DNA of 14,640 nt from a virus (lineage: Duplodnaviria; Heunggongvirae; Uroviricota; Caudoviricetes), in IMG/VR virus record IMGVR_UViG_2630968342_000015; one strand, written 5' to 3'. Position numbers and translations under genes: made by a program. Below are positions 5,239 through 14,640 of this stretch, piece after piece (positions within the stretch are counted from its first letter, which is position 1; each line of letters starts with the position of its first letter). Below the pieces are notes generated by a model. It was not told where the DNA came from and ran no database searches. It saw only the letters and a program-made list of their open reading frames with translations.

Positions 5239-5250
5239 ACTTATGGAATA

Positions 5251-5475
5251 ACTGTTCACCACTGTTCACCCTGTCATAAATATCTTTTGTATCAGTATGT
5301 TATAGGGTGAACAGTTATTTATGAACTGTTCACCAAACTATTCACTGTTCACCTTTTTGATTGTTTATTGAGCTTCAAGGGTGAACAGTGGTGAATAGTT
5401 GGTGAATAGTTTTTGTGAAACTGTTCACCCCTTAATATTATGAATTAAAAGATAAAATATCAAAAGGTGAACAGG
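5251..5475. repeat. Origin of replication: about 11 copies of the 10-bp iteron ACTGTTCACC in both orientations around AT-rich DNA
   Basis: Plus-oriented copies at 5251, 5261, 5325, 5344 and 5420, with a degenerate one at 5337. Inverted copies (GGTGAACAGT/GGTGAATAGT) at 5306, 5380, 5390, 5401 and 5466. AT-rich stretch at 5430-5465. Confidence 0.8.
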
Positions 5476-5525
5476 TGAAGGGTTAAAACGCAAAAATTTT
5501 AATTTACTGCTGTGAGATAAAGCCT

Positions 5526-6861: not shown

Positions 6862-6896
6862 TTGTTCGTGGTTGTTCCACGTTGTTCACTGACAGG
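6862..6896 (+). repeat. Three TTGTTC motifs on a 10-bp phase upstream of the head operon; candidate activator/Rep-binding site and promoter region
   Basis: TTGTTC at 6862, 6872 and 6882. The 15-mer TTGTTCCACGTTGTT (6872-6886) recurs exactly at 14374-14388. A possible -10 TATTTT lies at 6904-6909. Confidence 0.65.
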
Positions 6897-11153: not shown

Positions 11154-11319
11154 GCGGGAACAAAACCGCCTTATCCGTGGACTTATAAGGCAGCGTGACG
11201 CATGGAAGACACAGGAAACAGGGCATAAAGATAAAGCGTCAGGACGCGCAGAACGCATCACAGCGAAGCGATTAACCGACCGTGACCGCGAGGTTATGGA
11301 ATGTTTCCGCAATCGCTGA
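11146..11319 (+). CDS. Possible small charged protein (57 aa) in the HNH-terS gap
   Basis: ATG at 11146 overlaps the HNH stop (ATGAATGA). It is the only open frame across 11153-11319. No clear SD and no family recognised. Confidence 0.3.
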   Translation: MNEREQNRLIRGLIRQRDAWKTQETGHKDKASGRAERITAKRLTDRDREVMECFRNR

Positions 11320-11441
11320 TGAGGCTGTATGACGGGGTGGGGGGCGTTTTCAGGACAAACCCGACCCCGCCGGGCACCGACCGCCTCCTCAAATTTTTAT
11401 GCACGGGAATTTTTTGAAAAATAATCTGACGAAAAATAAGC
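11320..11441. other. Candidate cos region
   Basis: Lies between HNH and terS, the HK97-like position for cos. G-rich (11331-11346) and C-rich (11361-11389) segments are partly complementary and are followed by AT-rich DNA. Positional inference only. Confidence 0.35.
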
Positions 11442-11798: not shown

Positions 11799-13443
11799 GT
11801 ACGCAGAAGACGTAAAAACGGGCAAAATTCAGGCCTGTAAACGGTTAAAACAGGCCGTTAAACGGTACTTTTCGGACCTTAAAAGCCCCCTTTACACGTT
11901 CGATCGTGAGGTTGTGGATCGGTTTATTGCCTTTTCCAGGGTGTGCCCGCACGTAAAAGGGCCGATGCGTGGCAGACCCATTGAGCTGGAGCCGTGGCAG
12001 CAGTTCGCCTTTGCGTGCATCCTCGGCTTTAAGGTTAAGGCCACCGGACGGCGCAAATATACGAGCGCCTTTATCGAAGTGCCGCGCAAAAATGCTAAAT
12101 CAACGACCGCCGCGATTCTGGCTAACTGGTTTCTGATTATGGAGAACGGTCAGCAGGATATTTACACCGCAGCGGTGAGCCGTGACCAGGCGAGGATCGT
12201 ATTTGATGATGCGCGTCAGATGTGCATTTTATCCCGACCGTTACGCAGGCGGGTGAATATTCAGGCGCATAAGGTGATACACCCGAAAACCAACAGCCTG
12301 TTAAAGCCGCTGGCAGCAAAAGCGGCAACTATCGAGGGCACAAACCCCAGTCTTTCTATCGTGGACGAATACCACCTACACCCCGACAACGGCGTATATT
12401 CTGCGCTTGAACTGGGGATGGGGGCACGTCCCGAAGGGCTGTTATTTGCCATTACCACATCGGGAAGTAACGTCGTTTCAGCCTGTAAGCAGCATTATGA
12501 TTATTGCTGCCAGATCCTGGACGGCGAAGAGGTTAACGAATCGCTTTTTGTGCTGATTTACGAACTGGACGACGAAAACGAGGTTGATGATCCGGAGATG
12601 TGGATAAAGGCGAACCCTAATATCGATGTTTCCGTGGATCGTGAAAAACTGGCCTCAACCATTCAGAAAGCGCGGGGTATTCCGTCGCAATGGGTGGAGA
12701 TGATGACAAAGCGATTTAATATCTGGTGTCAGGGGACTACCCCGTGGATGGGTAATGGTGCATGGGCTGAGTGTGCCGGAACGTTCACGGAGGAAGATTT
12801 ACACGGTCAGGAGTGTTACGCGGGGCTGGACTTATCATCAACCAGCGATATTTCCAGCGTGTGCTATGCCTTTCCGGTCGGTAAAACCATTATGATGATT
12901 TCCCGTCATTATCTGCCGGAGTTCCAGCTACAGAACCCCGCCAATAAAAACCGCGCTGTCTATCGTCAGTGGGCTAAAGCAGGCTGGATACGCACAACGC
13001 CTGGCGACTGCATTGATTACGACCGGATCAGAGATGACATCATGCAGGACGCGGAGAAATTTAATATCAGGCTGGTGGGCTTTGATACGTGGAACGCCAC
13101 GCATCTCAGAACGCAATTACAGGGGGCAGGTTTTGAGGTGGAGCCGTTCCCGCAAACCTACCTCAGATTCAGTCCGGCGGCGAAATCGTTCGAAGTTTTT
13201 GTTAACCGCAGGGTGATTGTGCATCGTGGCGATCCGGTGTTGTCCTGGTCGATGAGTAACGTCGTGATGCAGAGTGACGCGAACGCCAATATCAAGCCGA
13301 ACAAGAAAAAATCACCGAACAAGATAGACCCGAGCGTGGCGGCGCTGATGGCGTTTGGTACATTCCAGGCAGAGCATGAGGATTTTGCTTTTGATATAAG
13401 CGACAGCCACCGCCAGAAACTGGAAGAATTTAGCGGGGTGTAA
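11782..13443 (+). CDS. terL: Terminase large subunit (Terminase_1 family)
   Basis: 553 aa. TTG start with GAGGA 5 nt upstream; no ATG or GTG is available between the upstream in-frame stop and 11782. Walker A-like VPRKNAKST and Walker B-like LSIVDEYH. Confidence 0.9.
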   Translation: MTAWNKYAEDVKTGKIQACKRLKQAVKRYFSDLKSPLYTFDREVVDRFIAFSRVCPHVKGPMRGRPIELEPWQQFAFACILGFKVKATGRRKYTSAFIEVPRKNAKSTTAAILANWFLIMENGQQDIYTAAVSRDQARIVFDDARQMCILSRPLRRRVNIQAHKVIHPKTNSLLKPLAAKAATIEGTNPSLSIVDEYHLHPDNGVYSALELGMGARPEGLLFAITTSGSNVVSACKQHYDYCCQILDGEEVNESLFVLIYELDDENEVDDPEMWIKANPNIDVSVDREKLASTIQKARGIPSQWVEMMTKRFNIWCQGTTPWMGNGAWAECAGTFTEEDLHGQECYAGLDLSSTSDISSVCYAFPVGKTIMMISRHYLPEFQLQNPANKNRAVYRQWAKAGWIRTTPGDCIDYDRIRDDIMQDAEKFNIRLVGFDTWNATHLRTQLQGAGFEVEPFPQTYLRFSPAAKSFEVFVNRRVIVHRGDPVLSWSMSNVVMQSDANANIKPNKKKSPNKIDPSVAALMAFGTFQAEHEDFAFDISDSHRQKLEEFSGV

Positions 13444-13456
13444 TGAGGTCAGCAGC

Positions 13457-13738
13457 ATGACAGAAGCCGAAATAACGGGATTAATCCGCCGCGTTGCCGG
13501 AATCAGCCAGCAGGCTGACGAACAGGCCACGCAGCCGGACAGCGTGACAGCCGAAAACTATGCGCGTGTTGTTGCTGAGGTGATGCGCCGTGATGGTATA
13601 GAACTTAATGGCGTGGATATGCGCAACATACGAACCAGAGTTCTTGAGTTGCTGGCCTACCGTCGCCGCGTGGAGATGTATCGGGAGAAGGAGAAAATAA
13701 CGTACCACTGGAAGAAGCCGGAGCGGTTGCGGCGGTAA
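13457..13738 (+). CDS. Hypothetical protein (93 aa), last gene of the packaging operon
   Basis: GAGGT 7 nt upstream of the ATG. Protein-like composition; no family recognised. Confidence 0.6.
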   Translation: MTEAEITGLIRRVAGISQQADEQATQPDSVTAENYARVVAEVMRRDGIELNGVDMRNIRTRVLELLAYRRRVEMYREKEKITYHWKKPERLRR

Positions 13739-14031
13739 CTGGTTGATATTCCCGACGGACCAAAAATGGGTGGCTACATCCCTCGCTTCTGAGGACTGTT
13801 AACAAGCTGCCTGAAAGACAGTCACAAACTACGAAATTTTCGCAGTTTAATTAATGATCAGCTTAATCGCTAACCCGCTGATATTTTCGGAAACCTCAAT
13901 TTGAGGAAGTCGGCGCGGTAACTCGCTGAACTTTAAGCAAAGTGCAAAATTGCGCTTGCTGAATAATCATTATGATTACGCAGATGATTAAGGAATGACC
14001 GAAGGCGGAAATTCGCCTGTGGTTAATGGGG

Positions 14032-14051
14032 GAGTTGCAGATCTGCAACTC
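14032..14051. repeat. 20-bp perfect palindrome GAGTTGCAGATCTGCAACTC
   Basis: Read directly; the sequence equals its own reverse complement. Confidence 0.9.
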
Positions 14052-14071
14052 GACCATGAAACTACGGAAAC

Positions 14072-14142
14072 TACCCGTAGTTTGGGTAGTAAGAGTAACA
14101 CCCAGATTTTGGGTCTTACTCGTGATACCCAAATTTGGGGTA
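14072..14142. repeat. Three 17-bp palindromic sites (T)ACCC-N7-GGGT(A) with centres exactly 27 bp apart; operator-like or tandem RNA hairpins
   Basis: TACCCgtagtttGGGTA 14072-14088, cACCCagattttGGGTc 14099-14115, TACCCaaatttgGGGTA 14126-14142. Centres at 14080, 14107 and 14134. Confidence 0.75.
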
Positions 14143-14363
14143 TCAGTGGCAACCATAACGACTTTCGTTACGGTTGATGCTTTTACCCCATTGGGGGAAA
14201 GGTATTACGATAATCATAACACCTACCGAACAGGTAAAGCCCACCAGCCTGATTAACGTTTAACCGGAAAAAAATTCCGGTAGGTGGGGATCCCCATATC
14301 GACATTAACGCCCCTCATGAATTGGTGCGCTTCCCCCTGGAAAGATGATCCGCCTGTATATTT

Positions 14364-14398
14364 CTTGTGTCTATTTGTTCCACGTTGTTTCATACAGT
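14364..14398 (+). repeat. Three TTGT-core motifs on a 10-bp phase near the right end; homolog of 6862-6896
   Basis: TTGTGT 14364, TTGTTC 14374, TTGTTT 14384. Shares an exact 15-mer with 6872-6886. Confidence 0.65.
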
Positions 14399-14407
14399 GC
14401 ACCGAAC

Positions 14408-14430
14408 GGTGTAGTCACTGGTGTAGTCAT
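14408..14430 (+). repeat. Tandem direct repeat GGTGTAGTCA x2 (12-bp period); candidate integrase arm-type sites
   Basis: Copies at 14408-14417 and 14420-14429, about 70-90 bp from the presumed junction. Confidence 0.4.
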
Positions 14431-14473
14431 TTTGCGATTTTTGGCACTTTTTGCGGTGAAAATTATTTAATTA

Positions 14474-14486
14474 AATCAACGTGTTA
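14474..14486 (+). promoter_or_regulatory. IHF consensus match (WATCAANNNNTTR) with an A/T-rich upstream tract
   Basis: AATCAACGTGTTA matches every consensus position. It is preceded by AAAATTATTTAATTAA and lies about 15-25 bp from the presumed junction. Confidence 0.45.
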
Positions 14487-14640
14487 TGTGAAATAAGTTA
14501 TATATAACAGCAATAAATAATGCGAGAATAAACGGCACGATGATCTCGGCGGCAAAACGGATACCGCAGAGAATAATGACCAGCATTCCCAACATAATGA
14601 CGATTTTTAGGCCATTGAGCGTGATGATCGGCTTTGCCAT
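14476..14640 (-). pseudogene. tqsA: Truncated 5' fragment of a tqsA/ydgG-like AI-2E (PerM) family permease gene, disrupted by the island
   Basis: The minus-strand ATG at 14640 gives [46 protein letters not shown], which matches my recollection of the E. coli TqsA N-terminus. It then diverges (YNLFHITR) to a stop at 14476-14478. Too short (54 aa) to appear in the ORF track. Confidence 0.55.

Follow-up and report, generated by a model that had tools for sequence, protein, structure and literature searches.

The right end of a phage-inducible chromosomal island (PICI) of Escherichia coli is a patchwork of non-coding modules, that is, several things joined together and not one element. The island is represented by a stretch of 14,640 nt (IMG/VR record IMGVR_UViG_2630968342_000015; "the window" always means this whole stretch), which is a capsid-forming PICI (cf-PICI) inside tqsA. 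A preliminary description of the window had flagged the interval 13739–14360 as lacking a credible open reading frame (ORF) and as very rich in secondary structure. We tentatively read this interval and the bases next to it as a composite of gene-end junction scars, a structured element in the 3′ untranslated region (3′-UTR) of the late operon (module M4), a Chi site (module M5) and the P′ arm of the attachment site attP; that the composite is correct as a whole seems to us somewhat short of an even bet. For M4 taken by itself, a structured 3′-UTR element of the late operon is the most economical reading, and it is likewise put forward with reserve.

A mosaic of modules downstream of a conserved late gene

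The genes of the island are, in order, integrase, an AlpA-like regulator, a P4-type primase, SSB, PerC, major capsid protein, protease and portal, followed by head closure and connector proteins, HNH, TerS, TerL and a protein of 93 amino acids (aa). An identical island is present in tqsA of E. coli strain G1/2. Comparison of attL, attR and the uninterrupted tqsA revealed a 9-bp core, ATAACAGCA, common to all three and located outside the flagged interval; the match to the core genome begins at 14504. Since the core maps to 14504–14512, the flagged segment is located between the 93-aa gene that ends the late operon (13457–13738) and attR, and it is indeed non-coding, as the preliminary description had supposed. 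The last gene (phrog_1561; Table 1) encodes a protein without a Pfam match, whose enterobacterial family is narrow, with 36 representatives at 50% identity. Its basic C-terminus, Y-x-W-K-x-P-x-RLRR, is invariant, and an AlphaFold model suggests three helices at low confidence (pLDDT 63.5). The gene occurs in every PICI type examined and is the last gene in many of them.

Of 5,426 complete E. coli genomes, 1,559 contain parts of the segment (median, one place per genome; maximum, six). Wherever such a place was inspected, it lay in a PICI, at its right end and past a homolog of the 93-aa gene. BLAST resolves the region into modules (M1 to M6 and the hairpin H0; Table 1), which recur at 73–100% identity downstream of this conserved gene and differ in combination, order and copy number from island to island. 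They were found in cf-PICIs, in lambda-cos-type islands with capsid, decoration and terS genes, in islands with a ClpP-capsid fusion and in a helper-embedded island within a prophage capsid gene; the attachment sites are tqsA, clpS, tRNA-Ile, phoQ and yejO. Comparison with related islands, which had been proposed as a check, shows conservation of the modules. A reading as variable cargo private to this island is not supported in that wording, as the modules are common to many PICI types and attachment sites.

Module frequencies were taken from an unbiased sample of 75 loci fetched via the 93-aa protein. M4 is present in approximately 22 and M5 in approximately 40 of the 75 islands, so that both are optional, and there are other islands with unrelated non-coding modules at the same place. 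Searches for distant homologs yielded one locus only in species-representative genomes and close relatives only (77–100% identity) in metagenomes, while a covariance model of M4 recovered just remnants and partial copies in islands without M4. No match to the segment was obtained by blastn in 50,697 phage records; six plasmid records match it, two of which are chromosome-sized.

Table 1. Features at the right end of the island (window coordinates).
Feature	Position	Strand	Basis or remark
93-aa gene, last of the late operon, phrog_1561	13457–13738	+	PHROG E = 2.9e-56; conserved anchor at the left of the non-coding region
Junction repeat copy 1, CGGTAACTGGTTGATATTCCCGACGG, then decayed hairpin ACCAAAAATGGGT	13732–13757	+	Sequence
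Perfect IHF consensus TATCAACCAGTTA	13736–13748	−	Overlaps the stop codon; first junction-motif copy
M1	13739–13869		BLAST mosaic
Junction repeat copy 2, CGCTAACCCGCTGATATTTTCGGAAA, then hairpin CCTCAATTTGAGG	13868–13893	+	Direct-repeat family D1
M2	13870–13913		BLAST mosaic
M3	13915–14001		BLAST mosaic
Junction repeat copy 3, CGGTAACTCGCTGAACTTTAAGCAAA, then hairpin GTGCAAAATTGCGC	13916–13941	+	D1, sequence
15-bp palindrome TAATCATTATGATTA (TAATCAT-T-ATGATTA)	13964–13978	.	Sequence, inverted-repeat search
H0 and M4	13996–14149		BLAST mosaic
H0 hairpin, 12 pairs, core GGCGGAAATTCGCC	13996–14025	+	Fold; just upstream of the cassette core
M4 core	14027–14149	+	20-bp palindrome 14032–14051, hairpin 14059–14083 with tandem AAACTAC, nested hairpin 14089–14119, GATACCC/GGGTATC 14123–14145
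20-bp perfect palindrome GAGTTGCAGATCTGCAACTC	14032–14051		Sequence, inverted-repeat search
Tandem GAAACTAC	14058–14065 and 14067–14074		Within the 9-bp hairpin
9-bp hairpin AAACTACGG/CCGTAGTTT	14059–14067 with 14075–14083		Has an alternative pairing
Nested hairpin	14089–14119		
M5	14150–14301	.	BLAST mosaic; stem 14150–14176, palindrome CCCCATTGGGG 14186–14196, Chi block, A-tract hairpin 14263–14281, palindrome 14285–14296
Stem with one A·C, U·G on the minus strand	14150–14176		Both-strand folds
9-bp long-range pair	14220–14228 with 14278–14286		Competes with CCGGAA...TTCCGG hairpin 14263–14281
Chi octamer GCTGGTGG	14241–14248	−	Inside block CCACCAGCCTGATTAA
12-bp palindrome TGGGGATCCCCA	14285–14296		
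M6	14302–14503		BLAST mosaic
attP P′ arm repeat	14375–14433	+	Direct-repeat family D2
Two candidate Int arm-type sites GGTGTAGTCA	14408–14417 and 14420–14429	+	
Second perfect IHF consensus AATCAACGTGTTA	14474–14486	+	18 bp from the att core
att core ATAACAGCA (attR)	14504–14512	.	attL, attR and empty tqsA compared; tqsA resumes here

H0 and M4 form a conserved, oriented hairpin cassette

All palindromes, repeats and hairpins listed in the preliminary description were recovered at the positions given there by inspection of the sequence and a repeat search, and the density of secondary structure is well beyond chance. The plus strand of 13950–14310 has a minimum free energy of −138.9 kcal/mol compared to −93.4 ± 5.5 for dinucleotide shuffles (z = −8.2); for the minus strand, z is −9.5. 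In sliding windows of 200 nt, the excess is limited to approximately 13940–14340 (z of −4 to −9), the part from 13739 to 13940 is only mildly structured (z of −1.6 to −2.8), and no excess exists from 14340 on. Five coding controls gave z of about −1.5 to +2 in the same test. Most of the excess is accounted for by H0 and M4, which together cover about 150 nt.

At the position of H0, other islands have ACGCAAAATTGCGT, GCGCAAAAGTGCGT, GCCCAAAAATGGGT, GTGCAAAAATGCAC or GAAATTACAAAATTTC; at least six unrelated stem sequences occupy the same place and the hairpin is kept. Hairpin loops are A-rich on the plus strand throughout, including H0 in all its variants. Within M4, RNAalifold prefers a long-range pairing of 14072–14104 with 14110–14142, which competes with two of the local hairpins. 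We collected 97 copies of M4 from E. coli genomes and IMG/VR contigs, and all 97 are downstream of and co-oriented with the 93-aa gene, mostly 38–50 nt past its stop codon. M4 is 93–94% identical between islands in which DNA identity of the neighboring 93-aa gene drops to about 85%. Directly after M4, the commonest island type has a terminator-like hairpin on the plus strand (locus L002, 6151–6176) with an 11-bp stem, eight G–C pairs and a T-rich tail; a second G+C-rich hairpin with a T6 run was seen by eye some 50 nt downstream of it.

Orientation, position after the stop codon and the following terminator are the reasons for which we favor a transcribed 3′-UTR element. H0 and M4 would lie in the untranslated 3′ part of the transcript of the long capsid-packaging operon, and the M4 hairpins would form in the sense RNA, ending and protecting the late-operon transcript. 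A further role of the hairpins may be to shield the operon from transcription that comes in from the disrupted tqsA, and M4 could be released as a 3′-UTR-derived RNA.

A number of findings speak against such a role in RNA. The M4 copy of the window has no convincing plus-strand terminator downstream. Base pairs in M4 are mostly invariant, with 2 of 38 compensatory; G·U cells outnumber A·C cells on the plus strand by 37 to 6, but distinct states are balanced (five G·U versus four A·C). As to the covariation for which the preliminary description had suggested a check, pairing in H0 survives at least six stem swaps and covariation in M4 is weak. The most diverged M4 copy (L004 type) breaks the nested hairpin, variants of the M5 stem at 14150–14176 pair better on the minus strand, and several palindromes are perfect through their center, which RNA hairpins do not need. 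Further, the conservation of M4 exceeds the needs of a mere stabilizer. M4 might also be an undescribed non-coding cassette specific to enterobacterial satellites that recombines between PICI lineages and acts, as RNA or folded DNA, on helper or host. In this case, which we think unlikely, it would be, for example, a decoy or a regulator of interference, induction or establishment, beyond a passive transcript end.

Alternatives to a 3′-UTR element

DNA-level roles are favored by the IHF (integration host factor) and Chi motifs, by the loop-less perfect palindromes and by the weak covariation, and because of the latter a purely DNA-level role is nearly as likely as the 3′-UTR element. The palindromes would then act as double-stranded or cruciform DNA, M4 and M5 would offer clustered sites to proteins that are dimeric or bind iterons, in a nucleoprotein scaffold bent by IHF that serves excision and integration, Chi recombination or another step in cis, and RNA folding would be a by-product of symmetry. 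We regard this as possible, though rather on the doubtful side. The palindromes of 20, 15 and 12 bp fit well, and so do four AAACTAC/GTAGTTT 7-mers, two direct and two inverted, with 9-bp spacing. Primary sequence is highly conserved even in the "loops," the minus strand has a folding excess at least as strong as that of the plus strand, and IHF consensus and Chi are concentrated in the region family-wide. Sister islands have DNA-type modules in the place of M4, namely palindromes beside Chi, up to five phased GTGAC repeats or an iteron/AT-rich block. However, the stem sequences of H0 and the Chi-adjacent palindrome are completely replaced between islands with symmetry kept, which needs either structure-level selection or many co-evolving proteins. 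M4 is never inverted relative to the operon, although symmetric sites would tolerate inversion. No candidate binding protein co-varies with M4, as those sampled islands that have no M4, about two thirds of the total, have the 93-aa gene as well. Finally, M4 is situated between about 350 bp and more than 1 kb away from the att core, depending on the island, and because of this variable distance it is not part of the att intasome; in L004, an abortive-infection gene separates M4 from the point at which the interrupted prophage capsid gene continues.

A different possibility is an independent small RNA (sRNA) gene, either M4 or a minus-strand unit in M5/M6, acting in trans on helper, host or island transcripts. 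M4 behaves like a cassette: it is optional, its conservation exceeds that of its flanks, some islands have two copies 434 nt apart, and it usually has its own terminator. On the minus strand, a weak promoter-like site exists at 14373–14345, and 14236–14253 is exactly complementary over 18 nt to 13066–13083 in terL and over 15 nt to 2029–2043. Nevertheless, no sigma-70-like promoter was found upstream of M4, and the complementarity is centered on Chi, for which reason we prefer an extended Chi context over an sRNA seed and have reread it accordingly. The Rfam scan proposed in the preliminary description assigned no family. No match reached the gathering threshold of Rfam 15 in the whole window, and in 13300–14640, at E up to 10, four chance-level matches appeared (12–18 bits against thresholds of 33–100). 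No tRNA or tmRNA was found at the att end, and a full-text search for the sequences found nothing. An independent sRNA gene is considered improbable.

The absence of a credible ORF in the segment, noted in the preliminary description, was corroborated: none has a significant family match, and ORF ends vary across related islands. For six overlapping ORFs of 40–86 aa, no significant Pfam match (two chance-level matches, E > 0.1) and no PHROG match was obtained; their starts, stops and lengths differ between islands, and RefSeq annotates no gene here in the identical G1/2 island. Hence, neither the conserved ORF nor the family match of a protein-coding accessory gene or a type I toxin was found. 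One candidate for a hidden small protein would be the frame MKLRKLPVVWVVRVTPRFW... from an ATG at 14056, whose heavily folded mRNA would resemble that of type I toxin genes. Most variants keep this frame open across M4, and in a hand count on the alignment 5 of 12 substitutions are synonymous. Yet the length of the ORF differs among islands (13, 26, 40, 66 or more codons), as the stop codon is placed in a variable hairpin loop, and all six frames are open across M4 owing to base composition and symmetry. No Shine-Dalgarno sequence precedes the ATG at 14056, the middle of the peptide has charged residues instead of a membrane helix, and Pfam and PHROG gave no match. The 26-aa version was judged unlikely on hand inspection of the M4 alignment, and a small protein in general appears very improbable.

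Finally, the segment could have no function at all and consist of recombination scars and selfish palindromic repeats that have accumulated where no coding constraint acts. Its modules are mosaic, duplicated and permuted between islands, and the gene-end junctions are decayed. On the other hand, M4 and the core of M5 are better conserved than the neighboring protein gene, and orientation and position of M4 are fixed. Long palindromes are unstable in E. coli; that they persist here implies selection. Lack of any function seems improbable.

Several observations on the same position in sister islands are added here. Two M4 copies 434 nt apart are present in L019 and also in L039, L060 and L092. 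The block between them (L019 4660–4860) contains three TTGCGGGTTA(T/C) iterons, then an AT-rich stretch and, in inverted orientation, three (A)TAACCCGC iterons; it looks like a replication origin or a cis-replication region at the right end. In seven islands without M4 (L233, L238, L253, L267, L271, L278 and L280), four to five GTGAC repeats with a phasing of 10–11 bp start directly past the stop codon, within the first approximately 60 nt after the 93-aa gene. They look like an array for protein binding in the manner of terminase or Rpp sites. Unrelated perfect palindromes beside Chi are found at the position of M4 in L291, L283 and L287.

M5 carries a conserved Chi site

M5 occurs with or without M4 in islands at tqsA, phoQ, clpS and yejO. 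All full-length M5 variants retain the block CCACCAGCCTGATTAA with its minus-strand Chi octamer, and Chi in minus orientation is enriched from +100 to +600 after the 93-aa gene (61 hits, 68 loci). In many M4 copies elsewhere, a plus-strand Chi is located immediately ahead of the 20-bp palindrome. By its orientation, the M5 Chi would halt RecBCD that enters PICI DNA, linear or rolling-circle, at the cos end on the terS side. As no RecBCD inhibitor is annotated in the island, Chi loading may protect the linear DNA of the satellite.

Chi is abundant in the entire window. We counted 14 sites in 14.6 kb, nine on the plus and five on the minus strand (873, 2034, 4234, 4917, 5797, 6131, 6272, 8349, 8716, 8844, 9848, 10293, 13071 and 14241), whereas shuffled sequences have a mean of 0.52 and a maximum of 3. 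Related PICI contigs have on average 0.77 sites per kb, and the host flanks of L001 (7.3 kb) have none. Further, 14236–14253 in M5 and 13066–13083 in terL form an exact 18-nt inverted repeat, ATCAGGCTGGTGGGCTTT, which is centered on Chi, and a third copy of 15 nt is found in an early gene at 2029–2043. The 18-nt repeat is too long for chance, even given Chi, and could be due to an extended Chi context or to gene conversion.

The right part is probably the P′ arm of attP

The stretch 14375–14433 is 81% identical to a stretch upstream of int beside attL (L001 3509–3567). The 10-mer GGTGTAGTCA is found twice in each, at 14408–14429 and at L001 3543–3564, and at the equivalent place in L002 GGTGTAGTTAA is found twice; such repeats are likely Int arm sites. 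With a core at both ends, arm repeats in both arms and an IHF consensus near the core, features of a tyrosine-integrase attP arm are present, and 14302–14512 is reasonably explained as the P′ arm with predicted Int arm repeats, IHF site and core. The attP arm and the Chi site, neither of which the preliminary description had recognized, account for the last quarter of the flagged interval and for the bases that follow. M4 does not have the fixed distance to the core of such an arm. The GTAGT repeats of M4 were considered as extra Int arm sites and rejected, as they are invariant across differing arm repeats and att sites, at variable distance to the core.

An exact 15-mer, TTGTTCCACGTTGTT, is common to the P′ arm (14375–14389) and the gap upstream of the capsid operon (6872–6886), and a degenerate copy is present in the P arm upstream of int (L001 3500–3525). 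It may be a binding site of a regulator, either AlpA or an excision factor.

Gene-end junctions and IHF motifs

The IHF consensus WATCAANNNNTTR has just two perfect matches in the 14.6-kb window (13736–13748 and 14474–14486), one at each end of the non-coding region, where IHF is predicted to bind. The match at the stop codon of the 93-aa gene is part of a junction motif, TAAC-N3-YTGATATT, which recurs at 13868, at 13916 and ahead of M4 in other islands, and a small hairpin follows each copy. The type of copy 1 precedes M4 in L002, L004 and L019. In L006, L009 and L010, BLAST aligns 13915–13993 to the end of the 93-aa gene, and 13896–13920, read by eye, resembles a decayed 3′ end of this gene. 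In 68 distinct loci, the IHF/junction motif has 61 hits in the same orientation between −100 and +400 of the stop codon, compared to 0–2 hits per 100-bp bin upstream of it; in related loci, IHF motifs in plus orientation are enriched farther downstream, from +400 to +800 past the 93-aa gene. The three decayed gene-end junctions of 13739–13995 would be scars of repeated recombination that swapped the downstream modules. As for the 15-bp palindrome in M3 (13964–13978), two of its stem pairs shift jointly from A–T to G–C in a few homologs.

Comparison to known systems

One of the closest likenesses is to the REP (repetitive extragenic palindromic) and BIME (bacterial interspersed mosaic element) sequences of E. 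coli, which include the IHF-binding RIP/RIB subtype and whose hairpins stabilize the upstream mRNA. Both are extragenic mosaics of short imperfect palindromes just past the last gene of an operon, with IHF consensus sites, order and number shuffled between loci and, presumably also here, transcribed 3′ ends; a palindromic mosaic with IHF sites at an operon 3′ end is what we found. REP/BIME are present in hundreds of copies per genome, whereas copies of the segment, wherever inspected, lie in PICIs (at most six per genome), and the M4 cassette is longer (about 150 nt), contains several different hairpins and is far more conserved. The sequences of the segment are not known to resemble the REP consensus.

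Structured 3′-UTRs and sRNAs derived from them, e.g., CpxQ and SroC, are well known in enterobacteria. M4 resembles them in being a few tens of nucleotides past the stop codon, in sense orientation and ended in most islands by an intrinsic terminator, but the copy of the window has no clear one. The region 14375–14512 with arm repeats on both sides, IHF site 18 bp off and 9-bp core resembles the lambda P′ arm with its H′ IHF site and attP of the P4 family; this likeness covers only the part to the right of approximately 14300, and M4 is situated well outside it. Chi protects linear and rolling-circle DNA from RecBCD, as in lambda Chi+ phages and Chi-bearing rolling-circle plasmids. The island appears similar in its correctly oriented Chi in a non-coding end, its 14 Chi sites on an element of 14.7 kb and the missing annotation of a RecBCD inhibitor, and differs in the 18-nt extended Chi context common with terL.

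PICIs have been studied almost entirely via their proteins, and full-text literature searches on these sequences, on small RNAs of satellites and on satellite Chi sites gave nothing relevant; within the full-text library searched, no description of M4, M5 or the Chi/IHF layout of PICI ends was found. Our results present the right end of PICIs as a conserved and recombining toolbox with hairpin cassette, Chi, IHF motifs and, in sister islands, repeat arrays, located where defense and virulence cargo inserts. If M4 works as RNA, Gram-negative PICIs would gain their first assigned non-coding function. If the Chi/IHF layout is functional, it hints at how satellites without an apparent RecBCD inhibitor survive as linear DNA and exchange cargo. 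In any case, the 93-aa gene together with M4 or M5 provides practical markers for delimiting PICI ends in genomes.

Host site, replication origin and cos

The island splits tqsA such that its promoter and first approximately 48 codons remain at the right flank (window 14476–14640, minus strand; L001 2507–3412). The ORF of this tqsA stub reads through att into island sequence and ends with a stop codon at 14476. As the promoter is kept, transcription from the host is expected to run into the island, antisense to the late operon.

A replication origin in 13739–14360 was rejected, as the segment contains no TGTTCACC iterons. At least ten copies of this P4-type iteron, (C)TGTTCACC, are found in both orientations at 5240–5480, an AT-rich gap just past the primase gene, which is the probable replication origin of the island. 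A lambda-type cos in the segment was rejected as well, because cosN (GGGCGGCGACCT) is absent from the window at up to two mismatches and is beside terS in lambda-type relatives, upstream of the 93-aa gene and outside the structured region. A G+C-rich gap at 11319–11441 (GGGGTGGGGGGCG...CCCGACCCCGCCGGGCACCGACCGCC), between a small ORF after HNH and terS, is likely the cos site of this capsid-forming island.

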